The notes below the pieces were generated by a model. That model worked only from the letters and a program-made list of their open reading frames with translations. It made no database searches and was not told the DNA's origin. A program made the translations under genes and the position numbers. A stretch of 64,000 bases of DNA from Candidatus Rokuibacteriota bacterium. Its GTDB lineage: Bacteria; Methylomirabilota; Methylomirabilia; Rokubacteriales; CSP1-6. The stretch covers positions 49,383 to 113,382 of the forward strand of contig JACPSW010000059.1 of assembly GCA_016193045.1 (NCBI GenBank), written 5' to 3'. This document shows, piece after piece, positions 13,904 to 64,000 of this stretch (position 1 is its first letter; each line of letters begins with the position of its first letter).

Positions 13904-14614
13904 TCAGGTCCTCTTTCCCCCGCCCGAGCGAAGATCTAACGCTTTCCGTGCGCGTTCCCGGCAATCGCCAACGACCATTGGCATGGCGATTGCTGCACAC
14001 TCCCGAAACGCCAGCGGACGGCTTTCGACCCGGATCTGCCCTTTTCGGATGGCTGTGAGGACCGATGCGACCGTCAGATCTCCCTCGATAAGGGAGTAGG
14101 TTGTCCCGAGCTGCCGGACAGAATGGCTGTCCGAGGTGCCTATCAGCGGAAGACCGGCTTCCTTGGCCAGCCGGACCGCGGGCCGGTTGAAGTTGATTCG
14201 CCGGGTGTAGAAATGGCTGAACTCGATCGCATCGAAGAGATCGATTTCGTCGACGAGCCGCTTCCGCAGGGCGTACGAGGCGGGAAAGAACGGGTGGGGC
14301 GCCACCACGAGCCACTCCGGGCGGCGAAGCCGCCGCAGGTCGGCGAAGGTCCGGACCCGCTCCGGCGGCACGTCGAGGTTATAGAGGAGGACGTGCTTGC
14401 CTTCGATCGTCGCTTCGACCCCCGCTATCAGGAGAATTCCGCGCTCCCGCGCATAACCCTTGAGGTCCCCGCCGAAGGTGACGATGTTGTGATTGGTGAT
14501 GCTGAGCACATGAAAGCCGGACGCCGCCGCCCGGTCGATGAGATCCGGCGCATCGTAGGTGATGAACGCATCCCGCTCCCGCGTGTGGAGATGCAGATCA
14601 GCCTTGAGCTCCAT
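13904..14614 (-). CDS. PHP-domain metal-dependent phosphoesterase (CpsB/YwqE-like family).
   Basis: Carries the N-terminal DLHLHT His motif, plus ITNH and GTSDSH motifs typical of the PHP family. It is the last gene of the long minus-strand locus. Confidence 0.7.
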
Positions 14615-15608
14615 ATCCGCTCCTCGTTGCTTCCCTATCCACCGAGTTGAACAGCATGTTCGTAACGCTGCCTCTTATGCCTCCGGCCTTCTGACGGAAC
14701 CACTCGATAGTCCGGCACAGTCCCTCGTCCAGATCGACCGTGGGTTCCCAGCCAAGCAGGGTCCGCGCTCGTGTGATGTCGGGTTGGCGCACCTTCGGAT
14801 CGTCAATGGGGAGCGGTTTGAGGATGATGGAACTCGACGAGTCGCTGAGGGCGAGGATCTTCTTTGCCAGTTCGAGAAGGGTCTTCTCCTCAGGATTCCC
14901 CAGGTTCACGGGTTCGGTGACCGCTGACTGCATGAGCTGCCAGACCCCCGCGACCAGATCGTCAAAGAAGCAGAAGCTCCGTGTTTGAGAGCCATCGCCG
15001 TACACTGTGAGGGGGTCACCGCGGAGCGCCTGGGTGATAAACGTCGGGATGGCCCGGCCGTCGTGAAGCCTCATGCGGGGTCCGTAGGTATTGAAGATCC
15101 GAGCGATCCGGGTATCCAGTCCGTGGAACCGATGGTAGGCCATCGTCATGGCTTCAGCGAAGCGCTTGGCTTCGTCATAGACCCCACGCGGCCCCACGGG
15201 GTTGACGTTCCCCCAGTACTCCTCCCGCTGGGGGTGGACGAGTGGATCGCCGTAGACCTCCGATGTCGAAGCCAGGAGGAACTTGGCTCCCTTCTCCTTG
15301 GCGAGCCCGAGGGCCTTATGGGTGCCGGGCGCCCCCACCTTGAGCGTCTGGATTGGGTGCTGCTGATAGTCGATGGGAGAGGCGGGGCTGGCGAAATGGA
15401 GGACGTAGTCCAGCCGCCCGGCCACGTAGATGTAGTTGGTGACATCGTGCTTGACGAAGGTGAACCGGTGGTCGCGAATGTGAGCGATGTTGTCAATGGT
15501 TCCCGTGAGGAGGTTATCCATGCAGACCACCTCTCCCCCCAGGGCGAGGAGAAACTCGCAGAGGTGGGAGCCGATGAAGCCAGCCCCTCCCGTGATCAGC
15601 ACGCGCAT
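14598..15608 (-). CDS. UDP-glucuronate decarboxylase (UDP-xylose synthase, an extended SDR).
   Basis: Contains [16 protein letters not shown] and the YDEAKR catalytic YxxxK motif. The conservation pattern matches the UXS family. Confidence 0.85.
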
Positions 15609-15615
15609 GGATGAC

Positions 15616-16926
15616 CTATCCAGGGATCACGGGCTTGCGCCCGATGGAGTGATACTCGAAGCCGAGACGCCGCATCCGCTCCGGCTCGTAGAGGTTTCGG
15701 CCGTCGAAGATCACGGGACGGCGCATGAACGATCGGACGCGCTCCAGGTTGAGAAATTTGAATTCATTCCACTCGGTGGTTAGGATGAGGGCGTCTGCCC
15801 CCTCGGCTGCCTCGTACGCCGACATGCAGTAACGGAGGCCCGGAGGAAGGAGGGGCTTGGCGTTCTCAGTCGCCACCGGATCGTAGGCCCTCAGTTCGGC
15901 CCCGTCATCGTGGAGGAGTCGGATCACCTCCGCACTCTTGGCTTGCCGCGTGTCGTCGGTGTTAGGCTTGAAGGCCAACCCCAGCACGCCGATCACCTTC
16001 CCTTCCACCGGCCCCAGCACCTTATGAACCTTCTCGACGAGGACGGCGGCGCGCTCCCGGTTGATCTCCTCAACAGCCTTGAGGAGCTTGAAATCGTAGC
16101 CCAGGGCCGCGGCGGTCTGGATCAAGGAGTCGGTATCCTTTGGAAGGCAGGCGCCCCCGTACCCGAGCCCAGCCTGGAGGAACGTCGTGCCGATCCGCGG
16201 ATCAAGCCCTACGCCCTTGATCACCTGCCCCACGTCGGCGCCGGCCAAGTCACAAATGTTCGCGATGGCGTTGATGAACGAGATCTTGGTAGCGAGAAAT
16301 GCGTTGGAGGCGTACTTGATCATCTCCGCGGAGGGCACATCCGTGATGATCATGGGACGCCCGAGCTGGGCGTAGAGCTCGAGGAGCGTCATGGCGACCT
16401 GCTGAGTCGGCGCCCCGATGACGATCCGGTCGGGGCGGAGAGTGTCCTCGATCGCGGAGCCCTCGCGGAGGAACTCGGGGTTCGAGACGACGTCGAACTC
16501 CACCGGCTTCGGTTGATTGGTCAGGATGATCTCCCGCACCAGCTCACCGGTTCCCACCGGCACCGTGGACTTGTTGACGATGACCTTGTAGCGGTTCAGG
16601 GCCCGCGCGATCCCGCGGGCGACCTCTTCGACCGCCGAGAGGTCCGTCTCCCCGTTAGCCTTGGCCGGCGTGCCGACCGCGATGAAGATGATCTCCGATT
16701 TCCTGACGCCCTCGGCGAGACCGGTCGTGAAGCTGAGGCGGCCGTCGGCGACGTTGCGCGCCACCATCTCCTCCAGCCCGGGCTCGTAGATCGGCATACG
16801 GCCCTGCTTGAGGCCTTCGATCTTCTCGCGCACCTTGTCCACGCAGATGACGTCGTTGCCCAGATCGGCGAAGACCGCTCCGGTCACCAGCCCCACGTAT
16901 CCCGTCCCGACCACGCAGATGTTCAT
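15616..16926 (-). CDS. ugd: UDP-glucose 6-dehydrogenase.
   Basis: Carries the [16 protein letters not shown] Rossmann motif and a central catalytic Cys region (GGACLPKD). At 436 aa it is typical of bacterial Ugd. Confidence 0.85.
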
Positions 16927-16986: not shown

Positions 16987-19179
16987 CTAGTGCGGCTCGC
17001 CTTCGACCCCGACGTGGTCGCCTGGTCGCGCTGTGGCGGACGCATGCGCCTCCTCGCGACGATCGAGGATCCCAGGGGTATTGGCGAGATCCCGTCCCAT
17101 CTCGGGCTGACCACCGAGGTACTGCGCCGGGACCCGCCATGCGAGCAGCTGTTTACGCAGGGCGGCGCCCGTCTTTACGCGCGGTCGCCAGCCGAGTTCC
17201 TCGCGCGCCTTGCGGCAGTCGAACACCAGCCGCGCGTACGCAGAGCGCAGGCGGTAGGGAGAGATGGAGGCGGGACGCCCCAGCAGATTCAAGAGCCACT
17301 CAATCCCCCTTGCCAGGAAGCACGCCAGGCCCATCGGCACGTGGATGATCCTCAGGTGCGGTTCGCGCCCCTGAGCGTACAGCGAGGCCAGTTCCTCACG
17401 CGTGAGCGAGCCGTCGCCGACACATTGATAGATGCGACCATCGGTGAACGGGCTCCGCGCGGCCTTCACCATCGCTTCCACCGCGTCGTCCACGTGGATG
17501 AGCGGCAACCGGATCGATCGGTCGCCGATGAGGATCAGCCGTCTGCCGGCGCGCATGCCGACCGCAGCAGTGATCAGCGGGCTGCTCTCGCTCCACATCT
17601 GTCCGAGACGCAGGATCAGCGCGGGCACACTGCGCTCCTGCGCCGCAGCGCGCACGATCCGTTCCGCTTCGAGCTTCGCCCGCGTGTAGTAGCCGCGCTG
17701 CTGAGGGAAAGGTTCGAGCGGTGAATTCTCGGTGACCGGCCTCTCGGCGGGATGCCCCGCCCAGTCAGTCACCGAGAGGGAACTGATATGGATGAGCTTC
17801 CCCACGCGGTGCTTGTGGCAGGCCTCGACGATGTTCCGTGTGCCGGTGATCGTGGCCGCTTCATGCGCCTCCCAACCACCGCCCATCGCCGCGCCGATGT
17901 GGAAGACCGTGGTGGCGTTGGCGAGAGCGCGGTCCACCGCCTCTGGATCGCCCAGGTCGCCGAGCGTGACTTCGACCTGCGGGTGATGGAGGATTTCGGG
18001 CGGTGGCAACCGGCGCACGAAGAGCCGCATGAACTCCCCCTCGTCGATGAGTCGGTTCACGAAAGCGCGGCCGAGATGTCCGTTCGCCCCCGTCACGACG
18101 ACAGCCGGGCGATCGCTCGGCCGATACTGGCTGACAAACTTCGCTTTCGCGTGATCCGCCTCGCGGGCGGCCTGTTCGGTCCAACGCACGATGGCGCGCG
18201 CTTGCTCGACGCCAGCCGGCATCGGTCCGCCCGTGGCGAGCGCGTCGTAGAAGTTACGGACGAAATTGTGGAGGCCCTGATAGGGCTGAATCGAGCCCGC
18301 CATGAACCGCACAGCGTTGGAGCTGACTTGCGCGGCGATCGAACCCGCCTCGCCGATGGCGTTGACGACGCGCTCAACCGCCTTCGGCAGCGGCGTGTGG
18401 AAGCGACGGGTGAGGAACATCGAGAACAAATCCGCGCGCAGCGTCCCGCGCGTTCCCTGGATGATGAGTTGGTGCTGCAACGGCTTGATGCTCCATGAAA
18501 GATGGATGCCTCCGGCACCCCGCGCGCATCGGACAAGGGCGCGCCACTCGTCGAAATGGAGGTTGGGGTCGCGGGACCTCGCCCCTGACGTTCTGAAATC
18601 TATCCGTAGATCCTGAATGTCGCCGAGGAACTCCTGAAGAAGATACAGCGCGTGCACGCCGAGATCCCGGAATGGAAAGCCTCCGTCCCGGCACGGCGGC
18701 GGCAACGGCCCGCCGCGATGGGGCGGGTAGTTGGAGCTGCGGAGGTACTCGACGGCGATGATCTCGCCAATAGCGCCGCTGCGCACAAGGTGGAGCGCCT
18801 TCGCCACAAACGGGTCGCCGAGGAGTGAGTGGCTGACGCACAGGTTCACACCTCGCGACGTCGCTTCTCCGGCGAGCCGGTCGCAATCGTCGACGCTCGT
18901 CGCCAGCGGTTTCTCCACGAGGACGTGGCAGCCGAGGGCAAGGGCTTCAAGCGCGACGATGGCGTGACTGTCCGGCGGCGTGAGAACATGGACGACGTCC
19001 AGACCTTCCGCGGCCATAACGGCGAGGGATCGGAAGGACGGGAGGCCCGTGGCTTGAGCCCGGGCCGGGTCGAGGTCCGTAACGCCGACGATGCGCACAT
19101 GGGGGAGCCGCTTCAGCGCCTTGATATGAAACTCGCTGACGTACCCTGCGCCGACCAATCCGACGCGGAAGGTCTTCAT
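16987..19179 (-). CDS. Bifunctional fusion of a Gfo/Idh/MocA-family oxidoreductase (N-terminal) and an NAD-dependent epimerase/dehydratase SDR (C-terminal).
   Basis: 730 aa. The N-terminal domain has VGLVGAGYVSEFHIKAL...EKPLA. The C-terminal domain has VVVTGANGHLGRAFVNRL...YYTRAKLEAE (YxxxK). The two domains are joined in a single ORF with no internal stop. Confidence 0.8.
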   Translation of the reverse strand: MKTFRVGLVGAGYVSEFHIKALKRLPHVRIVGVTDLDPARAQATGLPSFRSLAVMAAEGLDVVHVLTPPDSHAIVALEALALGCHVLVEKPLATSVDDCDRLAGEATSRGVNLCVSHSLLGDPFVAKALHLVRSGAIGEIIAVEYLRSSNYPPHRGGPLPPPCRDGGFPFRDLGVHALYLLQEFLGDIQDLRIDFRTSGARSRDPNLHFDEWRALVRCARGAGGIHLSWSIKPLQHQLIIQGTRGTLRADLFSMFLTRRFHTPLPKAVERVVNAIGEAGSIAAQVSSNAVRFMAGSIQPYQGLHNFVRNFYDALATGGPMPAGVEQARAIVRWTEQAAREADHAKAKFVSQYRPSDRPAVVVTGANGHLGRAFVNRLIDEGEFMRLFVRRLPPPEILHHPQVEVTLGDLGDPEAVDRALANATTVFHIGAAMGGGWEAHEAATITGTRNIVEACHKHRVGKLIHISSLSVTDWAGHPAERPVTENSPLEPFPQQRGYYTRAKLEAERIVRAAAQERSVPALILRLGQMWSESSPLITAAVGMRAGRRLILIGDRSIRLPLIHVDDAVEAMVKAARSPFTDGRIYQCVGDGSLTREELASLYAQGREPHLRIIHVPMGLACFLARGIEWLLNLLGRPASISPYRLRSAYARLVFDCRKAREELGWRPRVKTGAALRKQLLAWRVPAQYLGGQPEMGRDLANTPGILDRREEAHASATARPGDHVGVEGEPH

Positions 19180-20336
19180 TGCGAACGGGCGCCTTTGGCC
19201 TGACCGACGCGCTCACAGACGTGCTTCATCTTCGCCTCCCACGTCTCGTCGCGCATGGCGTCACTACGTTGATGGCGCTTCGCAGGGGTGTCGTCGCGCA
19301 ATGCGTGTTCGAGGCTGGCGATGAACTCGTCGTGCCCGTGCGCAACAGAGCAGATGTCGCTGTAATACTTCACTTCCGGCAGGTCTGTCGAGACGACTGG
19401 CAGGCCGGCGCTGAGGTACTCGCGAAGCTTGATCGGATTGACGGCGCGCGAAAGGTCGCTCACGACGAACGGGATGATCCCGACGTCGAAGCCTTTGCAG
19501 TACGCAGGGAGCGTGTCGTAAGGCCGTCGGCCCAGGATGCGGATGTTGGGTAGCTCCCGCACACCGTCCAACGACACGCACACTTCTCCAATGAGGACGA
19601 CTGACCATTCGGGGTGGGTGCGTCCAACCTCCGCAATGAGCTTCAGATCGATCCAGTCGTGGATGAGACCGAAGAACCCGATGACGGGGTGCGGCAGGTG
19701 CCCGATGTCCTCGGGGACGTTCGTCTCCGGGGCGAGCGCCTTCGCGAAATGCTGGTAGTCCACGCCGTGCGACGACAGAAAGGTGTTCGGGTTATATTCC
19801 CTCTTCGACGTGACGAGCGTGTGCGCCGTCGCCAGGCATATGTCGGCTTTCCTCAGCAGGTCGCGCTCCATTGCGGCCATCTTCTCTCCGTCGAGGTACG
19901 AGAAGGCGGACCACTCATCGATGCAGTAGTACACGACGAGCGATTCGTCGAGCTGCCCGACCATGTCCGCGACGTTCGGCAGGAAGGTCCACATCTGGGG
20001 GCGGGCCATGCCGAGCTTGCGCGCCTGGCGCTGGAGGAACCAGCGCAGGAGCCTGCGGTTGACGATCCTCGCGAGGCTGGAGTAGGGCAGCGGGATGACC
20101 ATGGGCTGATACACCCAGGCCCGCGGGCCGACCTGTCGGAGGCCGCCGAGGCACATGCGCAACTTCCGGAGAATCTTCTTCAGGTCGCGGGCTGAAGCGA
20201 GGCTCGGGCTGCGCATCGAGATGGAGTTGACCCAGAGCACCTTGTTGTCGGCCGCGAGATGCTTGAACACGTGGTCGCAGCTTGTCGGATCTCCACCCCA
20301 TTCCTTCGCAAAGTAGATGATCGATTCGCCTTTCAC
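19176..20336 (-). CDS. Glycosyltransferase, GT1/GT4-like (TuaH-type group 1).
   Basis: 386 aa with a GTG start. The C-terminal domain carries the IGFFGLIHDWIDLKLI...EYLSAGLPVVSTDL nucleotide-sugar-binding pattern of group 1 glycosyltransferases. Confidence 0.7.
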   Translation of the reverse strand: MKGESIIYFAKEWGGDPTSCDHVFKHLAADNKVLWVNSISMRSPSLASARDLKKILRKLRMCLGGLRQVGPRAWVYQPMVIPLPYSSLARIVNRRLLRWFLQRQARKLGMARPQMWTFLPNVADMVGQLDESLVVYYCIDEWSAFSYLDGEKMAAMERDLLRKADICLATAHTLVTSKREYNPNTFLSSHGVDYQHFAKALAPETNVPEDIGHLPHPVIGFFGLIHDWIDLKLIAEVGRTHPEWSVVLIGEVCVSLDGVRELPNIRILGRRPYDTLPAYCKGFDVGIIPFVVSDLSRAVNPIKLREYLSAGLPVVSTDLPEVKYYSDICSVAHGHDEFIASLEHALRDDTPAKRHQRSDAMRDETWEAKMKHVCERVGQAKGARSQ

Positions 20337-21358
20337 TCGGATTCCCCTTGTGGCTTGCCGATCCTTACTACGCGCGGGTCAGTTGATCTAATTGGAAGCG
20401 ACGCCCAATGCGCAATCGGTTTCTTCAGGACACAAAAGACCGCAAAGACGAAAAATTCGTCCAGCAGGGGAATTTGGCTCAGGCCCCTCAACCAGTGGCC
20501 GACTCTGAACGCCTTTCCAGAAAATCCGATGCGCTCAAAGTGAACAGTTTCAAATGGTAGAACCTTGAGCATCCGCCGGAATTGACGGATCGTCATGTGG
20601 TTGAGGTACTCCTTCCAATGTTGGTGATCCGTGTAGGGATTCGGGCGACGTTTTCCGGTGTCGGGATCGAACCAATAGTAGGCAGGTGTGTATTCGTCTG
20701 AGGCGTAAAGGTAAGCCGCGGCGTTCAGGAGTGTCTCCATCGAGAAGACCGTATGGAGCCACGGAAGCGGAAGGATGTCCTCAAGGTGTGAACCATACGG
20801 ACCAAGCCAGGGATGAAAGTGGACCAGAAACACACCCCCCGGGCGCAAGAGGCGATAGCACTCCCTGAAAATGTCTTCGGCCCGGCTGAGATGTTCAACG
20901 GTGTCTACGGTGTAGACCACATCGACGGACTCGTTGGGCAGGGGAATGCCCGAGGCCGTGGATTCCACAAAATGGATTCCGTTGCCGTGCTCGGCGCGCC
21001 CACGGGCCAGAGCCGATCTATCAATGTCAATTCCGATTGGCGAAAACTGCTCCTGCTGGCGAAAGGCCTTGAGGAGGTATCCCGTCGAGCATCCGAGCTC
21101 AGCGACCGACTTTCCACTGAACCGGGCGAAACGAGCGAACAGGCCGTAGTATCTCTCGATGTTTGACAAGCGGTCATCCACATGGTTCTGAGCGCTATCG
21201 TATCTCGCTCCCAGTCGGCCGTATCTCAAACCGAACCGTCGGAGTCGTCCGCTAAGAAACACTCGAGCGACGGCCAAACATACCTTCTCCGAAACCCGTG
21301 TGAGCTCTGGCCGCCCATTCAGTGCGACATCCTGCATTTTCGCCTCATGCTGGCCCAC
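20333..21358 (-). CDS. Class I SAM-dependent methyltransferase.
   Basis: SAM-binding motif I (VAELGCSTGYL), motif post-I (IGIDID) and LLRPGGVF are present. Confidence 0.75.
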   Translation of the reverse strand: MGQHEAKMQDVALNGRPELTRVSEKVCLAVARVFLSGRLRRFGLRYGRLGARYDSAQNHVDDRLSNIERYYGLFARFARFSGKSVAELGCSTGYLLKAFRQQEQFSPIGIDIDRSALARGRAEHGNGIHFVESTASGIPLPNESVDVVYTVDTVEHLSRAEDIFRECYRLLRPGGVFLVHFHPWLGPYGSHLEDILPLPWLHTVFSMETLLNAAAYLYASDEYTPAYYWFDPDTGKRRPNPYTDHQHWKEYLNHMTIRQFRRMLKVLPFETVHFERIGFSGKAFRVGHWLRGLSQIPLLDEFFVFAVFCVLKKPIAHWASLPIRSTDPRVVRIGKPQGESE

Positions 21359-26452: not shown

Positions 26453-26575
26453 CGCACATCCTCCTCTTGACCGGCGGGTTGTGAAACCAATCACCAGGAA
26501 AGCGTCGCCCCACGGTCTGCCGCTTCGTCTGGAAACATGACCGGGCGCCACTTCCCGTCAACACACATTCCTAAT

Positions 26576-55904: not shown

Positions 55905-57633
55905 CGGACCGTCGTAGTGCTGGCCGGTGTGGACGAGCAGCGGGGTCAGAGCGGACGCCTGGGATGCGCAGTCCCCGGTCCACGGCCGGACTGCCCGCCC
56001 GCAGCGTGAAGACCCGCTTGGCCTCGTCGGTGAACAGCGGGTCGATCTCGAGGTTGTCGGTGGCCTCGCGGTGAGTCTCCTGGAACTGCGCCAGGGTGTA
56101 TGTCAGGTTCTCGCCCTGGCTCGTGTTGCGGATCCGCAGCACCGCCGACTTGCCCGCCGATCCGGGCTCGCCCAGGAGGATGTTGTTCACAATCCGATTG
56201 CCATTCAGGCTCCCCACGGGCCAGGCCGTCGGGTTGTGGTAATGCTCGATCCCGATCGTGTAAGGCCCGCTGTTCCGGAAGAAAATATTGTTGGCGATCA
56301 GGTTGTCGCGCACGCTGCGGCCGTCCTTTTCAGACATCCAGATCGCGTATGACCCGTTGCCGTAGAAGACGTTGTGGTAGATCTGGTTGCCGATCGCGTC
56401 TTGGGGGAGGGCCTCACCTTTCTCCGTGTAGACATACCCGAGCAGCAAGAATGAGGTCGCGTTGTTGAAGACCTCGTTGTAGCGGATGATGTGGTCGCGC
56501 GACATAATCTGGATCGCCGTGGCAGTAAAGTTCACATTGGCCCGCTTCGCATCGGAGATGCGGTTGCGCTCGACGAGCGTTCGTCGGGCCATCCCGCCCA
56601 GCCCCATCCCCGTCCCCCACGGATTCGACAGGCTGTTCCCCGCCACCACGTTGTCTGCCACCTCGGCCTGGCCGGCCCTGTCACCGCCGACCTGGATCAG
56701 GGCGTGACCGGCGTTGCGCAGGGTGTTCTTCAGGACGCGGTTGCGGCTCGATCCGTTGTCGATCCAGATGCTGTCTCCCTTGTCGCCATTCAGATCACCG
56801 ACGTCGATGATCTGGTTCCGCTCGATGAGATTGTCGCTGGACCTGGTGATTCGAATAGCGTGGCCATAGGCGCCGGGTGCCGTGCCGGTATCCGCGATAT
56901 AGGAGTCGCGCACGACGTTGTGATGCGCGCCGGCGTCGAGCATGACGGCATTACCGGGGACGTTCTGGATCCGGAGCCGCTCCACCACGATGTGGCCGCG
57001 AGCCTCGAGCCTCACCGCGACGCCGGAGCGGCCGCCGGCGAGCACGGCGGTCTGGTTGGGATAGCTCTTGAAGGTGATCGGCTTCGCGGGAGTTCCCGAG
57101 ACCGCGGGACGAATCTGCTGGGCCGTGAAAGTCCCACGCAAGAGCACCGTATCACCCGCGACGACGGAGCGGTTGGCCTTCTCCAGGGTCCGCCACGCCG
57201 TCTCCGGGCTAGCCCCGTCCTTGCCGTCGTCGCCGCTGGCGGCATCGACGTAGAGGACCCGGTTGAAGGTCGGCGGGTTCACGACGGTCAGCCGGAGGGG
57301 GGCGGACACGATCACGGCCCCCGAACGGTAGTGGGCCTCCGCTGTGACCGTATACTCTCCAGGGGTCGCGCTGGCGGCGCTCCAGACCACCTCGTACGGA
57401 CGCGTGGTGTCCGGCGCGTCCAGGACGTAGCCATCCAGCTTGAACTGGACGGCGAGCAACCCCGGGTCCGGCGGCACCTCGGCGGTGAGCATCACGGCTC
57501 CGCTCACCGGGGATGGTTGAGAGGACCGGAGTGAGACGGGCAAGGACTGCGCGTGGCTGGAAACCGGGCCGCACACCAGCAGCAGGGCCACGAGGAGCGG
57601 GAGACCCCTTGCCAAGCTTCGGTGGTCGTTCAC
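55783..57633 (-). CDS. Secreted right-handed beta-helix protein with an N-terminal Ig-like domain (paralog 2). Its C-terminal tail is replaced by read-through into wecB-derived sequence.
   Basis: GTG start and signal peptide (LARGLPLLVALLLVCGPVSSHA). Motifs match paralogs 1 and 3 up to ...GLRIPGV. The last 56 aa (RSDPAARPHRP...) are unrelated and are encoded by an alternative frame of the truncated wecB. Confidence 0.75.
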   Translation of the reverse strand: MNDHRSLARGLPLLVALLLVCGPVSSHAQSLPVSLRSSQPSPVSGAVMLTAEVPPDPGLLAVQFKLDGYVLDAPDTTRPYEVVWSAASATPGEYTVTAEAHYRSGAVIVSAPLRLTVVNPPTFNRVLYVDAASGDDGKDGASPETAWRTLEKANRSVVAGDTVLLRGTFTAQQIRPAVSGTPAKPITFKSYPNQTAVLAGGRSGVAVRLEARGHIVVERLRIQNVPGNAVMLDAGAHHNVVRDSYIADTGTAPGAYGHAIRITRSSDNLIERNQIIDVGDLNGDKGDSIWIDNGSSRNRVLKNTLRNAGHALIQVGGDRAGQAEVADNVVAGNSLSNPWGTGMGLGGMARRTLVERNRISDAKRANVNFTATAIQIMSRDHIIRYNEVFNNATSFLLLGYVYTEKGEALPQDAIGNQIYHNVFYGNGSYAIWMSEKDGRSVRDNLIANNIFFRNSGPYTIGIEHYHNPTAWPVGSLNGNRIVNNILLGEPGSAGKSAVLRIRNTSQGENLTYTLAQFQETHREATDNLEIDPLFTDEAKRVFTLRAGSPAVDRGLRIPGVRSDPAARPHRPALRRSDVGAVLHRAGHPSAGLQPRRGLGLPRGSDRRGDAAAGASS

Positions 57634-57645: not shown

Positions 57646-60018
57646 CTACGACGTGACCCGCGTGTCCATGGCCTCTTGCACCTCCGCCTGGGTCAGCGCG
57701 CGGTTGTAGACCCGAACCTCGTCGATCAGCCCGCCGAAGAAGTCGAGGTTCGACGCGCCGTAGATCCAAGCCCCGATCTGGAGCGCATCAGTGACTGCGG
57801 GCAGCGATACCGATCGGGCGGTCCCCTGCGGTGCCCCGTTCAGGTAGGCGCGCAGGGTCGCGCCATCGTAGACAAGCGCTACGTGATGCCAGGTGTTCGT
57901 CGAGATGGCCGTGCCGAAGGTGCGGCCGCCGGAGAAGGTGATCACGCCGTTCCTGAGGAAAAAGGCTCGCGTACTCCCGACCGTCATGATCGTCTCGTAC
58001 GCCTCGTTGCTCGGGTTGAAGACCCAGGCCATCATGGTGAAGGCCGGACCGAGCGTCACTGTGCCCGCAGCGACGCGATCGTGGACGCCGTCGAAGGCAA
58101 GTGCCCTCCCCAAACCCCCCGGCGTGTGCGTCGTCCTGGTGGCGCCCGAGATGGTGGCACTGCGGTTGTTTCCCGAGGAGTCGACGGCGGTGGCGCCACT
58201 CCCTTCGTCGAACCCGTAGGCGGCCACGAGGCCGCCGGCCGCGGCGACCTCGAAGATGCCGATATCCGGGGCGGCCCCCTGGAAGTGGACGCCGGGGATG
58301 ATCACGCCCTCATCGATGGCAGAGCTCCCCGCCTGGAGGGCGAACACCCGGTTCGCCTCGTCGGCGAAGCGCGGGTCGGTCTCGAGGTTGTTGGCCGCCT
58401 CTGGGTAAAGGGCCTCGAATTGAGCCAGGGTGTAATCGACGTTGCCCCCCTGGTCGGGGCGGCGAATGCGCAGCACGGCGAGCTCCCCGGCGGAGCCGGG
58501 CTCCCGGAGGAGGATGTTGTTCTGGATCCGATTCCCGTTCAGGCTGCCTTCCGGCCACGCCACCGGCGTCTGGAAATGCTCGATGACGACCGAATAGATG
58601 GCGCCCCCGAAGGCAAAACCGCTGTTTCGGAAGAAGACGTTGTTCGCGATGAGGTTGTCGCGAACCGTGCGGCCGTCCTGTTCGAACAACAGGATCGCGA
58701 CCCCGGCCTGTCCCGCGTTGGCGGGCGCGGCCGTCCCCCCGTTGCCGTAGAAGACGTTGTGGTAAATCTGGTTGCCGATCGAGTCCTGCCCGATGGGTCC
58801 GAAGGCGAAGCCGCCCACGTGGATGCCCGCGCCCGCGTTGTCGAAGACCTCGTTGTACCTGATGATGTTGTCGCCGGCCGCGATCTGAATCCCCGGCCCG
58901 GGGGGGTTGACGCCGTTGCGGGCCCCGTCGGAAATCCGGTTGCCCTCGACGAGCGTCCGCCGGGCTCGCCACGAGAGGATAAGGGGCGTCGCCCACCGGT
59001 TGGACAGCACGTTGTTGGCCACGACGTTGTCGAGGACATCGGCGTCATCCGGCCGGTCGCCGCCGATCTGGATCAGGCTGTGGCCGCCGTTCGTCAAACG
59101 GTTGTTGAGGATCAGGTTCCGGCTGGCGCCGTTCGCGATCCAGACCGAGTCGCCGATGTTGGCCGCCTCGTCGCCCACATCCCGGATGATGTTGGCGTCG
59201 ATGACGTTGTCGCTGGAGCCGTCGTAGATGAGGATGTCGGTGCCCGTGAGGTCAGAGTTCCTGACCACGTTGTGGTGCGCGCCCTCGGCCAAGAAGACGC
59301 CGGACACTCCGATCGGGCTGCCGATGTTCGTCATGGCGAGGCCGTCGACGATGATGTAGCTCTCGGCCGAGCCCCTGTCGAGCCACACGACAGCGGCGAA
59401 CCATCCGCCGTCGAGCACGGCGGTCGCCCCCGGCGCGCTGCGGAAGGTGATCGGCCGGTCGGCCGTCCCCGACGTGAGGGGCCGGATCACCTGGCCCACG
59501 AATGTGCCCCGCAGCAAGACCGTGTCGCCTGCTACGACCGACTGGTTGGCCCTGTCGAGCGTCCGCCAGGCCGTGCTCGGGCCCAGTCCGTCGTTCGCGT
59601 CGTCGCCGCTGGCAGCATCCACGTAGAGCGTTCGGTTGAAGGCCAGGGGGTTGGCCACGGTGAGGTGGAACGGGGCGGATTCGATCACTTCGCCCGAGGC
59701 GTAGCGGGCTTCAGCGGTGATCGTGTGCTCGCCGTTCACGGCGCTGGCCGCGCTCCACAGGATCTCGTAGGGAAAGGCGGTATCGAGCGCTTCCAGCGGG
59801 TAGCCGTCGAGTTTGAACTGCACGCCGAGGAGCCCAGCCTCGGGCGGGACGTCGGCGGAGAGCGTCACGACGCCGGTCACCGGCGACGACTGGGACGCGC
59901 AGATCGCGAACCCCGGGAGCGCGGCCGGTTGGGCGGCCACGGGCAGGGGCAGGGCGGCCCAGGCCGCGAGCAGCAGGAGCGCCCGGCAGGCCCGAGCGAG
60001 GATCGAGTGTGCGTTCAC
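57646..60018 (-). CDS. Secreted right-handed beta-helix protein with an N-terminal Ig-like domain and a C-terminal LamG/concanavalin-A-like lectin domain (paralog 3).
   Basis: Signal peptide ILARACRALLLLAAWAALPLPVAA. The beta-helix core is paralogous to 12054..13883. A C-terminal ~200 aa LamG-like domain is present (FDGVHDRVA...WHHVALVYDG...LRAYLNG...IDEVRVYNRALT). Confidence 0.8.
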   Translation of the reverse strand: MNAHSILARACRALLLLAAWAALPLPVAAQPAALPGFAICASQSSPVTGVVTLSADVPPEAGLLGVQFKLDGYPLEALDTAFPYEILWSAASAVNGEHTITAEARYASGEVIESAPFHLTVANPLAFNRTLYVDAASGDDANDGLGPSTAWRTLDRANQSVVAGDTVLLRGTFVGQVIRPLTSGTADRPITFRSAPGATAVLDGGWFAAVVWLDRGSAESYIIVDGLAMTNIGSPIGVSGVFLAEGAHHNVVRNSDLTGTDILIYDGSSDNVIDANIIRDVGDEAANIGDSVWIANGASRNLILNNRLTNGGHSLIQIGGDRPDDADVLDNVVANNVLSNRWATPLILSWRARRTLVEGNRISDGARNGVNPPGPGIQIAAGDNIIRYNEVFDNAGAGIHVGGFAFGPIGQDSIGNQIYHNVFYGNGGTAAPANAGQAGVAILLFEQDGRTVRDNLIANNVFFRNSGFAFGGAIYSVVIEHFQTPVAWPEGSLNGNRIQNNILLREPGSAGELAVLRIRRPDQGGNVDYTLAQFEALYPEAANNLETDPRFADEANRVFALQAGSSAIDEGVIIPGVHFQGAAPDIGIFEVAAAGGLVAAYGFDEGSGATAVDSSGNNRSATISGATRTTHTPGGLGRALAFDGVHDRVAAGTVTLGPAFTMMAWVFNPSNEAYETIMTVGSTRAFFLRNGVITFSGGRTFGTAISTNTWHHVALVYDGATLRAYLNGAPQGTARSVSLPAVTDALQIGAWIYGASNLDFFGGLIDEVRVYNRALTQAEVQEAMDTRVTS

Positions 60019-60023: not shown

Positions 60024-61334
60024 CTACAGCCTGAGAATCCGGTCGGCCGGAGCGGGGATCCCCCAGGTGGCGTTCCGCGTGTCCACGACGAGCGCCGCCG
60101 CCTCGACGATCCGCCGGTAGTCGAACTCCGGATGGTCGGCGAGGATCAGCGCGCAGTCGGTCGCTCGGAGCTCCTCGTCCGTCACCGCCACGGCCTTCAG
60201 CACAGCCCCGTCAAGCACGATCGAGGGGACGTAAGGGTCGGCGTAAGAGACCTCGGCCCCCCTGTCGCGGAGCTTCGCGACGATCTCCAGGGCAGGCGAC
60301 TCCCGCATATCGCCGACGCCGCGCTTGTACGCGACCCCGAGCGCGAGGATCCTAGCGGCGTTCACACAGCGGGCCCGCCGGTTCAGCGCCTCGGTCACCA
60401 GCTCCACCACGTGGCGGGGCATCGCGCGATTGATCTCGTCGGCCAGCGCGATGAAGCGCGCCTCGTAGCCGTTGAGGCGCATCTTCCAGGCGAGATAGAG
60501 GGGGTCGACGGGGATGCAGTGCCCGCCGATGCCCGGCCCCGGGTAGAAGGGCATGAAGCCGAAGGGCTTCGTGGCGGCGGCGTCGATCACCTCCCTGGTG
60601 CTCACGCCGAGGCGCTGGCACATGAGGGCGAACTCGTTCGCCAGCGCGATGTTGACGTTCCGGAAAACGTTTTCGTAGAGCTTGGCCAGCTCGGCGACCT
60701 TCGGGCTGGAGACCTCGACGACCTTGGTGATGATCTGACGGTAGAGGAAGGCGGCGAGGTGTGCGCACTCGGGCGTGACGCCCCCCACCACCTTCGGGAT
60801 GTCTCGCACCTTGAAGGTCGCGTTGCCCGGGTCGATGCGTTCCGGCGAGAAGGCGAGGAACAGGTTGACGCCCACCCTGGCCTGCCGGCCCTCGAACAGG
60901 GAGAGTAGGAGCTCCTCGGTGGTCCCCGGATAGGTCGTGGATTCCAGAATCACCAGCTGACCGGGCCTGAAGCGGGCGGCGGCCTGCTCTGCCGCGGCGA
61001 CCACGAAGGAGATGTCCGGGTCCTTGGATTTCCTCAGCGGCGTCGGCACACAGATGAGCACGGCTTCGCTCTGTTCCAGGACGGAGAAGTCCGACGTCGC
61101 CTCGTACCGGCCTTGGCGGAGCAGTGTCGCCAGGTCCTCGCTCTCCACGTCGGGGCTGCACGACCGGCCGGCGTTGAGCGCCGTGACTCGGTCCAGGTCG
61201 GTGTCGAGGCCCGTCACCGGAAAGCCGGCGCGGGCGAACTCGACGGCCAGAGGGAGCCCCACGTACCCCTGGCCGATGACGGTGAGGCGTGCCTCCCGGT
61301 TTCGGATGCGTTCGACGAGGCCTGCGTGACTCAT
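60024..61334 (-). CDS. UDP-N-acetyl-D-glucosamine (or mannosamine) 6-dehydrogenase, WbpA/WecC-like.
   Basis: The Rossmann motif TVIGQGYVGLPLA and a catalytic Cys region (GGHCIPVD) are present. 436 aa, in the nucleotide-sugar dehydrogenase family. Confidence 0.85.
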   Translation of the reverse strand: MSHAGLVERIRNREARLTVIGQGYVGLPLAVEFARAGFPVTGLDTDLDRVTALNAGRSCSPDVESEDLATLLRQGRYEATSDFSVLEQSEAVLICVPTPLRKSKDPDISFVVAAAEQAAARFRPGQLVILESTTYPGTTEELLLSLFEGRQARVGVNLFLAFSPERIDPGNATFKVRDIPKVVGGVTPECAHLAAFLYRQIITKVVEVSSPKVAELAKLYENVFRNVNIALANEFALMCQRLGVSTREVIDAAATKPFGFMPFYPGPGIGGHCIPVDPLYLAWKMRLNGYEARFIALADEINRAMPRHVVELVTEALNRRARCVNAARILALGVAYKRGVGDMRESPALEIVAKLRDRGAEVSYADPYVPSIVLDGAVLKAVAVTDEELRATDCALILADHPEFDYRRIVEAAALVVDTRNATWGIPAPADRILRL

Positions 61335-62368
61335 TCCCGCACCTCCGCGGCCAGCTCCAGGACGGCCTGGGCCAGTCTCTGTGGGTCGTGGCGGATCTTG
61401 GGGCCCACCCCGAGAAGGTCGCGCGCGATCGGCCGGACGCCCAGCGCCCCTAGGGGCGGGACTTCCATGGGGACGGGGACAGTACCTTCGGCGGCATAAT
61501 GCTCGATCAGCTCAGGGGGGATGGGGGCAGTATTAAAGAGCACATCGTGAATGGGGACCTGGGGCGCATGGCCACGGATGGCCATGACAAAGTCGGCCGC
61601 GGTGTAGCCGTCGGTCTCCCCCGGCTCGGTCATCAGGTTCATCACGAGCACGATCCGGGCACGGGAATGCGCCACGGCCTCCGCGAGCTCCTCGATCAGG
61701 AGGATAGGGATGAGGCTGGTGTAAAGACTTCCGGGGCCGATGACGATCAGATCCGCCGCCCCGATGGCGTCCCGGGCCTGGGGGAGGGCCCGGGCGCCTT
61801 CCGGCTTCAGCCGAACCCGCCGGATGGGGCGGCGGGCCGAGGCGATCCGTGATTCTCCTTCCACGCAGCTGCCGTCGGCAAACTCAGCCAGGAGGACGAC
61901 ATCGTCCCCGGTGGATGGCAAGACTCGCCCCCGGATCGCCAGGATCTCGCCTCCCCGCTCCACCGCCCTGGAGAAGTCGCTCTCGAGCTGGCTGAGGGCG
62001 GTCAGGATGAGGTTCCCCAGGCTATGGCCTCCAATTTCTTCTCCGCCATTGAATCGGAAGCTGAAGATGGCCGCCATTCGGGGATCGCCATCCGCGAGGG
62101 CGAGAAGGCAGTTCCGGAGGTCGCCCGGAGGGAGCACCCGGTACGCCTGTCTCAGGCGCCCGGAACTGCCTCCGTCGTCCGCGACCGTGACGATGGCCGT
62201 GAGTCGATCCCGGTCTCGGGACGGTTCCCACATCCATCCGGGAGGAAACAAGGCCGCTCTCATGCCCTGGAGCAGAATGGGGAGACCGGTGCCGCCCCCC
62301 AGCGCGACCACCCTGGGAGTTCGACGGGCGGGCCGGAAGGCCGGGGCCAGGAGCCGCTCCCCCGGCAT
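61331..62368 (-). CDS. YvcK/CofD-family (UPF0052) protein.
   Basis: Start at MPGERLL. The VVALGGGTGL motif and conserved DGGSSG and GPGSLYTS blocks are present. Confidence 0.75.
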   Translation of the reverse strand: MPGERLLAPAFRPARRTPRVVALGGGTGLPILLQGMRAALFPPGWMWEPSRDRDRLTAIVTVADDGGSSGRLRQAYRVLPPGDLRNCLLALADGDPRMAAIFSFRFNGGEEIGGHSLGNLILTALSQLESDFSRAVERGGEILAIRGRVLPSTGDDVVLLAEFADGSCVEGESRIASARRPIRRVRLKPEGARALPQARDAIGAADLIVIGPGSLYTSLIPILLIEELAEAVAHSRARIVLVMNLMTEPGETDGYTAADFVMAIRGHAPQVPIHDVLFNTAPIPPELIEHYAAEGTVPVPMEVPPLGALGVRPIARDLLGVGPKIRHDPQRLAQAVLELAAEVRE

Positions 62369-62478
62369 GGCCTGCCACCGGTAGAGCCCTATGTGGCTGT
62401 CGTACTCGACCAGGTAGCGTGGCTCGCCCACGGCCTCACTCCGTCTTGATGCCCCGCACTTCCTCGCTCTTCCACCAA

Positions 62479-63774
62479 TCACGCCGCCTTCGTCTGGTCG
62501 AGCTTCTTGCGTAGTGTCCATTTGCCGGTCACTCCCGTGAGGGGCTCGGCCCGGCGGGCATCGGGCGCCGCTGAACGGCAAGCTAAGAGAACGATCTTGA
62601 ATGTCTCGAAGAGGATACGGAGATCGAGCCGGAACGACCGGTGCTTGACGTAGTAGACGTCGTACCGCAGCTTCTCGATCTCTTCCTCGAGGTTGTTCGC
62701 GTAGCGGTAGCGGACCTGGGCCCAGCCCGTGATTCCTGGCCGGACCATCGAGCGGAGGCAGTAGTACGGGATGGCTTCGCCGCTCTCGGGGGTGTTTCGA
62801 GCTACCAGGGCAAACAGCTCGAAGTTTGAGGCCGGATGGGGCCGCGGACCTACGAGATTCATGTCGCCCCGGACGATGTTCACCAACTGAGGAAGCTCAT
62901 CGAGGTGAAACTTCCGGAGCCACTTCCCGACCCGGGTGATGCGGTCGCCGTTGTCCCCGACCCACTCGGACGTCCGCCCGCTGGCGGGGCGCATGGTGCG
63001 AAACTTGACTAACGTGAAACGCTTCCCGCGCAGGCCCACCCGCTCCTGAACGAAAAACACGGGCCCCCGGGAATCCAGCTTGATCGCCAGGGCGATGAAG
63101 CCGAAAAGGAGGGCAAGGCTGATGAGCCCCATCAGAGAGGCGAGAAAGCTCATGGCGCGCACGAGCACCAGGTAGGTCCAGGGCTTGGGGAAATCCCTGG
63201 AGAAGACGAGGTGGTTCGACGTGAGCGACTCGATGGCGAGCTTCCCCGTGAGGCGCTCGTAGACCTCGACACCGTCGTCGACAGCAACGCCCCTCAACAT
63301 CCGGGCCTCCAGGAGCGGCTCGATACGCAACCTCCCTCGCAGCTCGTCGAGCGCCACGATGATCCGGTCAGGACGGACCTGCTCAACAATCTTGCCGATC
63401 TGCTCCAGTGGCCCCAACAGGGGATAGCCGAGCGGTAGGTCTTGGGGCCCGCCGGGATCATCCGCCACGCCCACGATGGCGTACCGGCCACGGGGGTCAG
63501 CCTCGATCTCCTCGATGAGCTTCCGGGTGAGCAGGCTCGTCCCCACGATCAGCACGCGCTCCCTGAAGGCGCGGCTTCTGAGAATCCGGTATGTGGCGGC
63601 GTGGAGCGGCAGAACCAGCCCGAGGCCGATCAGGACACTCGCGAGGACAGGACCTCGGGCGAGCATTTCTGGGAAAAGCACGTAAAGGGCGCCCACCACG
63701 GGTAAGGCGATGCCGAGGGATACCGCGCAGGCGAACGACAGTGCGGAGGCTAGCTTCAGCCGCGTCAGCGTCAT
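62479..63774 (-). CDS. Polyprenyl-phosphate glycosyl-1-phosphate transferase (WbaP/EpsB-type bacterial sugar transferase); initiates repeat-unit assembly.
   Basis: N-terminal transmembrane helices and a CoA-binding-like linker are present. A C-terminal catalytic domain has KFRTM, DELPQLVNIVRGDMNLVGPRP and ITGWAQV motifs. Confidence 0.85.
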   Translation of the reverse strand: MTLTRLKLASALSFACAVSLGIALPVVGALYVLFPEMLARGPVLASVLIGLGLVLPLHAATYRILRSRAFRERVLIVGTSLLTRKLIEEIEADPRGRYAIVGVADDPGGPQDLPLGYPLLGPLEQIGKIVEQVRPDRIIVALDELRGRLRIEPLLEARMLRGVAVDDGVEVYERLTGKLAIESLTSNHLVFSRDFPKPWTYLVLVRAMSFLASLMGLISLALLFGFIALAIKLDSRGPVFFVQERVGLRGKRFTLVKFRTMRPASGRTSEWVGDNGDRITRVGKWLRKFHLDELPQLVNIVRGDMNLVGPRPHPASNFELFALVARNTPESGEAIPYYCLRSMVRPGITGWAQVRYRYANNLEEEIEKLRYDVYYVKHRSFRLDLRILFETFKIVLLACRSAAPDARRAEPLTGVTGKWTLRKKLDQTKAA

Positions 63775-64000
63775 CGTTCGCGGGGCTCTCTCAGGCGGTC
63801 CAGGCTGACAACGGAGCCTGACTCACGCCCGTTGCCCCCGGTGACCGGCCACCCGATCCTCATTCTCCGGCGGGGGTGGCCGGCAACCAGCTGGCAGAGG
63901 AGGGGCCCCAGCTTGTCGGGATCGTGCCGAACCACGGGCGCCGGCTCGAGGAGGTCAGTGGTCACGACCAGCGGATGCCCGGACGGGGCCGCGAAGTCGA
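63771..64000 (-). CDS. 3' end of an unidentified upstream gene (partial); the reading frame is open to the window edge.
   Basis: The minus-strand frame is open from 64000 down to the TGA at 63771-63773, which overlaps the start of the priming transferase (ATGA). The encoded C-terminus has no recognisable motif. Confidence 0.35.
   Translation of the reverse strand, partial: DFAAPSGHPLVVTTDLLEPAPVVRHDPDKLGPLLCQLVAGHPRRRMRIGWPVTGGNGRESGSVVSLDRLREPRER

Follow-up and report, generated by a model that had tools for sequence, protein, structure and literature searches.

A long mosaic run of co-directional genes in a Rokubacteria genome likely encodes one surface polysaccharide system

The window analysed here, a 64,000-nucleotide stretch of DNA from Candidatus Rokuibacteriota bacterium (assembly GCA_016193045.1, contig JACPSW010000059.1, positions 49,383 to 113,382 of the forward strand), is dominated by a contiguous run of genes on the minus strand that extends from position 13,904 to the window end. 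Judging from the protein families represented, this run is probably the main surface heteropolysaccharide locus of the organism (for an exopolysaccharide, EPS, a capsule or an O-antigen-like glycan), with Wzx/Wzy-dependent assembly and with recombined modules that now cooperate. The locus clearly is a mosaic assembled by recombination, and this mosaic likely functions as one system. The entire 50 kb contain a single initiating polyprenyl-phosphate glycosyl-phosphotransferase (PGT), a single Wzx flippase and a single Wzy_C-domain protein, so that the blocks of sugar-pathway and decoration genes have no assembly machinery of their own. The shared assembly machinery, together with the conservation of the gene content in related contigs and the links between the distal part and the core of the locus, favors one functional system. 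To our knowledge, the Rokubacteria, which are abundant in soil, have never been cultivated, and their cell surface has not been described.

Genes were called from the GC content of third codon positions (GC3) and Pfam support, in a window with an overall GC content of ~66%. There are 40 complete genes between positions 13,904 and 63,774, all on the minus strand, and a partial 41st open reading frame (ORF; 63,771-64,000) on the same strand that extends past the window end. No plus-strand gene was found inside the run, the plus-strand ORFs being antisense shadows of minus-strand genes supported by Pfam. With the best-fitting starts, 33 of the 40 junctions overlap or are at most 25 bp long, and 19 of the 40 are overlaps, mostly of 4 or 1 nucleotides; the gaps above 25 bp measure 358 (24,445-24,802), 146, 109, 60, 44, 43 and 39 bp. 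By a rough estimate, a co-directional run of at least 40 genes far exceeds chance strand persistence. These observations bear out much of the initial annotation of this DNA, which had placed every gene from 13,904 onward on the minus strand, described the junctions as mostly overlapping or short, and located the 5' end of the run beyond the window, where the partial 41st gene indeed runs off. The count of about 45 genes given there was slightly high, and two of the 40 complete genes are remnants, one of wecB and one of an RCC1 gene, both truncated. All the components listed in that annotation were recovered by Pfam and NCBIfam: the PGT, Wzx, the Wzy_C protein, two glycosyltransferases (GTs) each of the GT2 and GT4 families, a TuaH-like GT1/4 enzyme and a GT-C enzyme, as well as a deacetylase of carbohydrate esterase family 4 (CE4), two methyltransferases, a carrier protein with the DSL motif, an AMP-ligase, a FabG-like short-chain dehydrogenase/reductase (SDR) and proteins with signal peptides.

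The genes assigned to initiation, assembly and sugar transfer, with the partial gene at the window end, are listed below.

63,771-64,000, minus strand, YvcK/CofD-like C-terminus, the 3' end of the 41st gene (weak YvcK C-terminal matches)
62,479-63,774, minus strand, initiating PGT of the WbaP/WcaJ type (EPS_sugtrans; Bac_transf 7e-59)
61,331-62,482, minus strand, YvcK-type (CofD-family) UDP-sugar-binding protein (TIGR01826, 331 bits, cut-off 196)
60,024-61,334, minus strand, UDP-N-acetylhexosamine 6-dehydrogenase of the WecC/Cap5O/WbpA family (three UDPG_MGDP_dh matches)
53,381-54,910, minus strand, Wzx-type flippase (Polysacc_synt and Polysacc_synt_3 at 1e-12; multiple transmembrane segments)
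52,030-53,337, minus strand, Wzy_C-domain membrane protein (Wzy_C 6.6e-18)
50,866-52,020, minus strand, GT4b (Pfam)
49,734-50,855, minus strand, GT4a (Pfam)
47,669-49,726, minus strand, heparinase II/III-like protein without a signal peptide (Hepar_II_III_N and Hepar_II_III_C)
46,240-47,559, minus strand, GT2b, a membrane GT2 (Pfam; transmembrane segments)
45,042-46,220, minus strand, GT2a, similar to polyprenyl-phosphate-sugar synthases, with two C-terminal transmembrane helices (Pfam)
34,863-36,608, minus strand, GT-C fold glycosyltransferase (PMT_2/DUF2079)

The PGT, the type of enzyme that initiates synthesis in Wzx/Wzy loci, scores above the cut-off of TIGR03025 (311 bits against 295.55) and is identical to MBI3029563.1 from Candidatus Rokubacteria (100%); the best identity in a metagenome scan was 57%. 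Next to it lies the YvcK-type gene, an adjacency that recurs in L006, L009 and L041 (L001, L002, L006, L009 and L037-L041 denote the related contigs used for comparison). A reading of 61,331-62,482 as the F420 enzyme CofD/FbiA was rejected, the TIGR01819 score being 30 bits against the cut-off of 257 whereas that of the YvcK family TIGR01826 exceeds its cut-off. On the other side of the PGT, the stop of the 41st ORF overlaps the PGT start codon within an ATGA, and the ORF weakly matches both the YvcK of the window itself (E 6e-5) and the YvcK C-terminus in L041 (E 1e-5); going by these similarities, the PGT may be flanked by two YvcK paralogs. We know of no role of YvcK in polysaccharide initiation. 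The adjacent dehydrogenase has its best matches in the Protein Data Bank (PDB) among UDP-ManNAc dehydrogenases (4r16 and Cap5O). The L041 contig carries the order PGT-(methyltransferase)-YvcK-dehydrogenase, with identities to the window proteins of 59% for the PGT, 74% for YvcK and 78% for the dehydrogenase.

No chain-length regulator (polysaccharide co-polymerase, PCP; Wzz/Wzc) and no outer-membrane polysaccharide export protein (OPX; Wza) was found among the 40 genes of the window. By analogy with L006 and L041, where such genes lie upstream of the PGT, they may be located beyond the window end. In L006, the PGT is preceded by a Wzz/GNVR protein and a kinase-like ATPase, and in L041, by a NusG paralog, two Poly_export proteins, a GNVR protein, AAA and AAA_31 ATPases and GlmS. 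The NusG paralog (374-952 of L041, plus strand) is the first gene of that Rokubacteria locus; in other bacteria, specialised NusG paralogs mediate antitermination through long polysaccharide operons.

Among the assembly proteins, the flippase belongs to the MOP family, as is typical of Wzx in Wzx/Wzy loci. The Wzy_C protein could be the polymerase or, equally, a ligase or O-oligosaccharyltransferase; the Wzy_C domain is also found in ligases and O-oligosaccharyltransferases, and the best NCBIfam match of the protein is a putative O-glycosylation ligase associated with the exosortase A system (TIGR03097, 116 bits, below the cut-off of 188). The heparinase-like protein is identical to MBI3029554.1 (100%) and matches a heparinase III structure in the PDB (1e-24). 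Its homologs in L039 and L040 (64-67% identity) are flanked by homologs of the GT4 enzymes (62-64% and 37-39%). A cytoplasmic location is predicted for this protein, which is a candidate uronate C5-epimerase or lyase-like editing enzyme; editing of uronic acids is a possible activity of this fold. The best NCBIfam matches of GT2a are PgfS, PpgS, ArnC and AglJ, under the equivalog cut-offs, and its best PDB matches are DPMS (5mlz), ArnC and GtrB. The GT-C enzyme has orthologs with 73-76% identity in L001, L037 and L038, a sole relative in the genome collection, from one Rokubacteria metagenome-assembled genome, and no match in a PDB sequence search.

Downstream of the GT2 genes, the run continues with the sugar-pathway, acylation and redox genes, and an amidase gene.

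44,020-45,045, minus strand, NAD-dependent sugar epimerase/dehydratase of the SDR type (Pfam)
42,647-44,023, minus strand, FAD oxidoreductase of family PRK07233 (NF005560, 457 bits, cut-off 252)
38,645-42,650, minus strand, WbpD-WbpE-WbpI-WbpB block (Pfam)
37,614-38,648, minus strand, CE4 deacetylase without a signal peptide (Polysacc_deac_1 1.9e-17)
37,305-37,601, minus strand, carrier protein with the DSL motif (weak PP-binding)
36,605-37,303, minus strand, FabG-like SDR (strong adh_short; best NCBIfam matches of FabG type)
33,523-34,863, minus strand, AMP-forming ligase (Pfam)
32,774-33,526, minus strand, GNAT (weak Acetyltransf_1, 2.9e-6)
32,062-32,763, minus strand, hexapeptide acyltransferase (Pfam)
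31,142-32,065, minus strand, lipoprotein alpha/beta-hydrolase, Lipase_2-like, with the lipobox LASGC (Pfam, N-terminus)
29,522-31,102, minus strand, GMC flavoprotein oxidoreductase (Pfam)
29,100-29,525, minus strand, 141-aa small twin-arginine protein (RRRF signal)
26,576-29,089, minus strand, 837-aa membrane protein with a central domain of the spermidine-synthase fold (AlphaFold2, AF2, and Foldseek)
24,803-26,551, minus strand, Tat-signal amidase (NF005565, 790 bits, cut-off 545)

The Wbp block encodes the N-acetyltransferase, 3-aminotransferase, 2-epimerase and 3-dehydrogenase families of the pathway for UDP-2,3-diacetamido-2,3-dideoxy-hexuronic acid. The WbpD-type protein matches WlbB (3mqg, 3e-68) and the WbpE-type protein 3nu7 (5e-78) in the PDB, the WbpI-type protein exceeds the cut-off of the wecB family TIGR00236, and the best match of the GFO enzyme is a UDP-GlcNAc 3-dehydrogenase. 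Counting the WecC/Cap5O-like 6-dehydrogenase, all five Wbp families are represented, an assignment that holds at the family level. The four Wbp genes appear in the identical order in L037, with 73-88% identity. For the two enzymes encoded within 42,647-45,045, the PDB search gave no close solved structure.

The CE4 gene overlaps the WbpB stop codon. It retains intact DxD and HSxxH motifs and its position is conserved in L001, L037 and L038, with no specific similarity to ArnD; thus, as in the Wbp/Vim scheme, a VimE-like CE4 deacetylase is associated with the Wbp genes. Because of this overlap, and because the carrier protein, reductase, ligase and two acyltransferases come next, transfer of a carrier-bound acyl group would be the predicted fate of the freed amine. 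The pair of the carrier protein and the SDR is conserved in L001, L037 and L038, and the ligase-GNAT-hexapeptide trio is contiguous in all four relatives (L001, L002, L037 and L038; 75-89% identity). The PDB search with the ligase produced generic matches to the ANL family. The GNAT has no NCBIfam match at 1e-4 and does not match the VimA type (FemAB-like, TIGR03019), so that Wbp/Vim is taken here as an analogy and not as a system to which these genes belong. The lipoprotein hydrolase has orthologs in L001, L002, L037 and L038; in L037, it was detected by tblastn on the forward strand (18,563-19,360), where the gene caller had placed a 216-aa reverse-strand gene.

A further indication that these genes form a unit comes from the relatives. 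In L001, L002, L037 and L038, the genes of the module are co-directional but permuted, and the proteins are 66-89% identical to those of the window. In L037, the order is WbpD-E-I-B-CE4-carrier-SDR-GFO-epimerase-cytochrome c::PQQ-837 aa-GT-C-ligase-GNAT-hexapeptide-MBL-lipase-RCC1, and L001 is similar; L038 has CE4-carrier-SDR-GT-C-methyltransferase-lipase-ligase-GNAT-hexapeptide-cytochrome c::PQQ-837 aa-GFO-epimerase-MBL-RCC1-RCC1, and L002, GT2-methyltransferase-methyltransferase-lipase-GFO-epimerase-ligase-GNAT-hexapeptide-GMC-141 aa-837 aa. What is kept together throughout this shuffling is the set of CE4, carrier protein, SDR, GT-C, ligase, GNAT, hexapeptide transferase, periplasmic dehydrogenase, 837-aa protein, hydrolase and RCC1. 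Comparative genomics, which the initial annotation had named as the way to tell a conserved block from a mosaic one, thus gives a divided answer: the content of the module is retained, the order is shuffled, and the locus is mosaic. A link between the distal part and the core is provided by the TuaH-like glycosyltransferase near the 3' end of the run, homologs of which (49% identity) lie 2-3 kb from the heparinase-like and GT4 genes in L039 and L040. The view of the run as one giant glycoconjugate locus accordingly holds for most of it, which appears to be one glycan-assembly system, and requires correction with respect to a passenger gene, the mosaic structure and the boundaries.

The probable passenger is the amidase, a protein with no evident glycan role. 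None of the four relatives spanning this region of the locus (L001, L002, L037 and L038) carries it, and its gene is followed by the 358-bp gap, the largest of the run, which separates it from the RCC1 gene; it is probably not part of the glycan system.

The redox cassette of the module is variable. The trio of GMC, 141-aa and 837-aa genes is also found in L002, and in L001, L037 and L038, a cytochrome c-PQQ dehydrogenase replaces the pair of the GMC enzyme and the small protein, so that the 837-aa gene directly follows a periplasmic dehydrogenase in all arrangements (the window, L001, L002, L037 and L038). The 837-aa protein is identical to MBI3029536.1 (100%) and belongs to no Pfam family. 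It has more than 1,000 homologs with 64-85% identity, labelled 'spermidine synthase' by JGI, some of which, in Steroidobacteraceae, are outside any glycan locus. The protein contains ~14 hydrophobic, putatively transmembrane segments; in the AF2 model (pLDDT 81), the SpeE-fold domain is located between two transmembrane bundles, and Foldseek matches it to SpeE (E 5e-7, TM-score to the target ~0.58). The region of the acidic motif reads, by eye, YSNHTS, so that the protein seems to be devoid of the usual SpeE acidic catalytic motif.

Composition sets this cassette apart. The flanking housekeeping genes have GC3 values of 0.91-0.94 and most genes of the locus 0.77-0.91, compared with 0.62-0.69 for the GMC/141-aa/837-aa cassette. 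Among the homologs of the 837-aa protein, those linked to PQQ dehydrogenases (L037 and L038) have GC3 of 0.85-0.89, and the GMC-linked one (L002), 0.69. The low GC3 of the GMC-linked versions, as against the native-looking PQQ-linked versions, suggests that the redox cassette was swapped in from a donor with a lower GC content.

Recombination can be gleaned also from two gene remnants, which mark recombination joints.

54,903-55,904, minus strand, N-terminally truncated WecB (UDP-GlcNAc 2-epimerase) remnant (match beginning at position 42 of the 366-position profile)
21,345-21,743, minus strand, remnant of another RCC1 gene (73% identity to RCC1 over the initial ~100 aa)

The WecB remnant lacks the first ~41-52 residues and overlaps by 122 nucleotides the gene for a secreted beta-helix protein, BH1. 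No GTRPE motif is present upstream of the remnant in any frame. The BH1 tail departs from that of its paralog BH3 after '...IPGV', the native C-terminus being replaced by read-through into the WecB remnant; it looks like a deletion joined the two genes. The WecB remnant is probably a pseudogene, and the spacing of the NCBI accessions, which leaves one gene without an accession between the heparinase-like gene and the PGT, fits this conclusion. The RCC1 remnant consists of a signal peptide, ~100 RCC1-like amino acids and an unrelated tail, and ends at the start of a methyltransferase gene.

The secreted repeat proteins in and next to the locus, and a riboswitch associated with one of them, are as follows.

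57,646-60,018, minus strand, BH2, secreted protein with Big_7, right-handed beta-helix and LamG (Pfam; signal peptide)
55,783-57,633, minus strand, BH1, secreted protein with Big_7 and beta-helix (Pfam)
23,032-24,444, minus strand, secreted RCC1-repeat beta-propeller with Big_2 (Pfam; signal peptide)
12,054-13,883, plus strand, BH3, a third secreted Big_7 and beta-helix paralog (Pfam; ATG at 12,054, with a signal peptide)
11,916-11,996, plus strand, c-di-GMP-I-GGC riboswitch aptamer (RF03167, 70.5 bits, gathering threshold 59, E 1e-14, full length)

BH3 is convergent with the end of the locus, and shares 64% identity with BH1 and 55% with BH2. The predicted aptamer, which matches the RF03167 family above its threshold, is located in the 5' leader of BH3 and ends 57 nucleotides before the ATG; immediately before the ATG, there is a short hairpin (GTGGTCC/GGACCAC) that could mask the ribosome-binding region. 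There were no other Rfam matches in the window and no riboswitch in eight related loci. Given this paralog and the riboswitch on the plus strand (11,916-13,883), the 3' boundary set in the initial annotation, at 13,904, was too tight. Beyond it, the flank (1-11,222) contains unrelated housekeeping-type genes with GC3 much above that of the locus: a molybdopterin oxidoreductase with FmdE, a repressor of the DtxR/IdeR type, an ABC importer, a zinc peptidase-like protein and an ATP-grasp protein similar to D-Ala-D-Ala ligases. Orthologs of the RCC1 gene end the module in L001, L037 and L038, with two intact RCC1 genes in tandem in L001 and L038. Beta-helix proteins possibly cut or epimerise the polymer, as is known for this fold.

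The distal end of the run comprises the following genes.

21,788-22,885, minus strand, class I methyltransferase with a fused VanZ-like membrane domain (Pfam)
20,333-21,358, minus strand, methyltransferase (Pfam; GC3 0.64)
19,176-20,336, minus strand, TuaH-like glycosyltransferase (best match TuaH)
16,987-19,179, minus strand, GFO/IDH/MocA::NAD-epimerase fusion (Pfam)
15,616-16,926, minus strand, UDP-glucose 6-dehydrogenase (TuaD type, 576 bits)
14,598-15,608, minus strand, sugar enzyme of the extended SDR type, UXS-like by eye (Pfam)
13,904-14,614, minus strand, PHP-family phosphoesterase (Pfam)

The PHP protein was also considered as a phosphotyrosine phosphatase of the CpsB/YwqE type; no such match was found in Pfam, NCBIfam or the PDB, the nearest relatives being PHP phosphoesterases.

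The pathway that can be proposed from these families would start with two sets of nucleotide sugars. The WecC/WbpA-type dehydrogenase, together with WbpB, WbpE, WbpD and WbpI, would produce UDP-2,3-diacetamido-2,3-dideoxy-hexuronic acid, and the TuaD-like UDP-glucose dehydrogenase and the SDR would produce UDP-GlcA and a derivative, both at the level of family assignments; the family composition supports, at that same level, an acidic heteropolysaccharide rich in amino sugars as the predicted product. The PGT, beside the conserved YvcK-type protein, would start the repeat unit on polyprenyl phosphate, GT4a, GT4b, GT2b and the TuaH-like enzyme would extend it, Wzx would flip it and the Wzy_C protein would polymerise or ligate it. 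The CE4 enzyme encoded after the Wbp genes would remove an N-acetyl group, the AMP-ligase would load an acid on the carrier protein, the FabG-like SDR would reduce the acyl group, and the GNAT, the hexapeptide transferase or both would re-acylate the amine, following a Wbp/Vim-like logic. GT2a would generate a polyprenyl-phosphate sugar to be added by the GT-C enzyme on the outer face of the membrane, in the manner of ArnC/ArnT or PpgS/Rv3779. Extracytoplasmic processing of the polymer would involve the Tat-exported flavoprotein dehydrogenase with its 837-aa partner, the lipoprotein hydrolase, and the beta-helix and RCC1 proteins, and the methyltransferases would modify the polymer as well. 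The export and chain-length genes would be encoded upstream of the window, as they are in the relatives, and the amidase would be a passenger.

Several observations weigh against the interpretation of the run as a single Wzx/Wzy-type locus. The window contains no export genes, and the Wzy_C protein is possibly not a polymerase. The composition of the run is heterogeneous, and the two remnants indicate recent rearrangement. For the genes near the 3' end (the methyltransferases, GFO::epimerase, UDP-glucose dehydrogenase, SDR and PHP), clear orthologs are lacking in the related contigs; the similarity of the methyltransferases and of the GFO::epimerase fusion to their counterparts there is at the family level only (27-34% identity). 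Any glycan role of the PHP and RCC1 genes would be putative. The failure of the GNAT to match the VimA type belongs here too. The relatives are close (the same phylum, mostly 70-89% identity), so that the shared content partly reflects ancestry rather than selection. Scans for sigma-70 promoters and intrinsic terminators yielded counts within the expectation from shuffled sequences, almost all inside coding sequences; matching the shuffles, they are uninformative and provide no evidence for or against one operon. The 358-, 146- and 109-bp gaps could be sites of internal promoters.

Some of these observations would also be compatible with independent systems lying side by side on one strand, an explanation that we regard as unlikely. 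It divides the run into three parts: a Wzx/Wzy EPS core (~47.7-63.8 kb); a stretch (~26.5-47.6 kb) in which the Wbp genes accompany a distinct module for a lipid-linked or acylated glycoconjugate; and a set of unrelated genes, namely the amidase, RCC1, the methyltransferases, the UDP-GlcA genes and PHP. The larger gaps (109, 358 and 146 bp) fall at the borders of these blocks, there are remnants at two junctions, and GC3 is heterogeneous, with a foreign-looking cassette. The distribution of some genes points the same way: the amidase is missing from L001, L002, L037 and L038, the heparinase/GT4 core in L039 and L040 has no carrier protein/GT-C module within 10 kb, and the 837-aa protein is found away from glycan loci in Steroidobacteraceae. 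However, the downstream blocks have no PGT, flippase or polymerase of their own, and the nucleotide-sugar genes require glycosyltransferases, which are mostly encoded in the other block. Furthermore, the distal TuaH-like enzyme is tied to the core in L039 and L040, the Wbp genes directly adjoin the decoration module in L037, and 19 junctions overlap.

Less probable still, in our estimate, is a system for protein glycosylation or anchoring, in which the glycan is transferred to the secreted beta-helix and RCC1 proteins or tethers them; the Wzy_C protein would then be an O-oligosaccharyltransferase or ligase, and GT2a and the GT-C enzyme would be a pair of the kind that includes PMT-like protein glycosyltransferases. 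The best NCBIfam match of the Wzy_C protein, a putative O-glycosylation ligase, and the PMT_2 match of the GT-C enzyme are in line with such a system, although all the supporting family matches are under the curated cut-offs and Wzy_C is also the usual Pfam match for polymerases. Four secreted repeat proteins are encoded in or beside the locus, with the RCC1 genes conserved beside the module, but secreted beta-helix proteins encoded in EPS loci tend to be lyases or epimerases. A precedent exists in Porphyromonas, where the Wbp/Vim sugar links secreted proteins to polysaccharide (PMC7468200). In the window, no sortase, exosortase, PEP-CTERM tail or T9SS (type IX secretion system) C-terminal domain was seen. 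A more specific proposal along these lines, that the WbpDEIB-CE4-carrier-ligase-GNAT genes make, by analogy with Wbp/Vim, a 2,3-diamino uronic acid with an N-acyl or N-aminoacyl group that, besides decorating the polymer, acts as a linking sugar and covalently tethers the RCC1 and beta-helix proteins to the polysaccharide, with the dehydrogenase and the 837-aa protein as a new extracytoplasmic modification pair, appears very improbable, and would differ from the Wbp/Vim sugar of type IX cargo in the absence of T9SS or exosortase signals and in a carrier-protein-based acyl donor.

The preferred interpretation, a mosaic but cooperating polysaccharide locus, can be compared with several known systems. 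With the Wzx/Wzy clusters for O-antigen, capsule and EPS (such as colanic acid and the Salmonella O-antigen), the locus has in common the PGT, Wzx, Wzy_C, several GT families and dedicated nucleotide-sugar genes, arranged on a single strand with junctions that overlap. It differs in the number of genes (~40 compared with the usual 10-25), in that the PCP and OPX genes are not inside the window, in the addition of the periplasmic redox, GT-C and carrier-protein modules to the general plan, and in coming from an uncultivated phylum whose glycans are not known to have been characterised. The size, which had been described initially as well beyond that of a typical locus, is at the high end and not exceptional: L039, L040 and L041 contain comparably large co-directional glycan loci. 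The rfb locus of Leptospira is another example of a very long co-directional cluster.

The Wbp systems (Pseudomonas aeruginosa O5 and Bordetella Wlb) and the Wbp/Vim system resemble the window in the contiguous WbpD/E/I/B genes and in the CE4 and GNAT-type transferase downstream. According to the scheme proposed for Porphyromonas and Tannerella, WbpA/B/E/D produce a di-N-acetyl uronic acid, from which the CE4 enzyme VimE removes an N-acetyl group before VimA re-acylates the product, using serine or glycine (Veith et al. 2020, PMC7468200). To this scheme, the window adds an AMP-ligase, a carrier protein and a FabG-like SDR, which suggests a carrier-bound acyl donor, and the 3- and 6-dehydrogenases are closest to archaeal and WecC types, so that the order of steps may differ from that of the Wbp pathway. 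The combination of a GT2 synthase-like protein, CE4 and GT-C in one locus is shared with ArnC/ArnD/ArnT and with PpgS/Rv3779 (mycobacterial GalN), whereas specific similarity to ArnD or ArnT is lacking, the acceptor is presumably a polysaccharide, and GT2a is encoded ~8 kb away from the GT-C enzyme.

The nearest curated NCBIfam set for the PGT, GT4b, CE4, AMP-ligase and Wzy_C proteins is that of the XrtA/PEP-CTERM-associated EPS loci (Haft et al. 2006, PMC1569441), with the matches from this set under the cut-offs. Those loci likewise include an acyl-CoA ligase, a carrier protein and hydrolases. No Pfam or NCBIfam match to an exosortase (EpsH/XrtA) was obtained in the window, and the C-termini of the secreted proteins have no PEP-CTERM tail. 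In Vibrio cholerae O1, the tetronate module rfbKLMNO, composed of a carrier, an adenylating ligase, a reductase and a hexapeptide acyltransferase, N-acylates an amino sugar; that module differs in acting on perosamine, with enzymes of other subfamilies and no CE4 step. A literature search on polysaccharide loci of Rokubacteria and on carrier protein/ligase modules in polysaccharide clusters found nothing specific.

In many respects, this is an ordinary polysaccharide locus, the interest of which lies mainly in the decoration module and the paralog linked to a riboswitch. The decoration module is conserved across several Rokubacteria contigs and would extend the Wbp/Vim logic. The locus also illustrates how such systems can be rebuilt by cassette exchange, and the beta-helix paralog next to it would tie the system to a variant c-di-GMP-I riboswitch. 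If the proposed interpretation is correct, the locus offers a concrete parts list for the main surface glycan of Rokubacteria.

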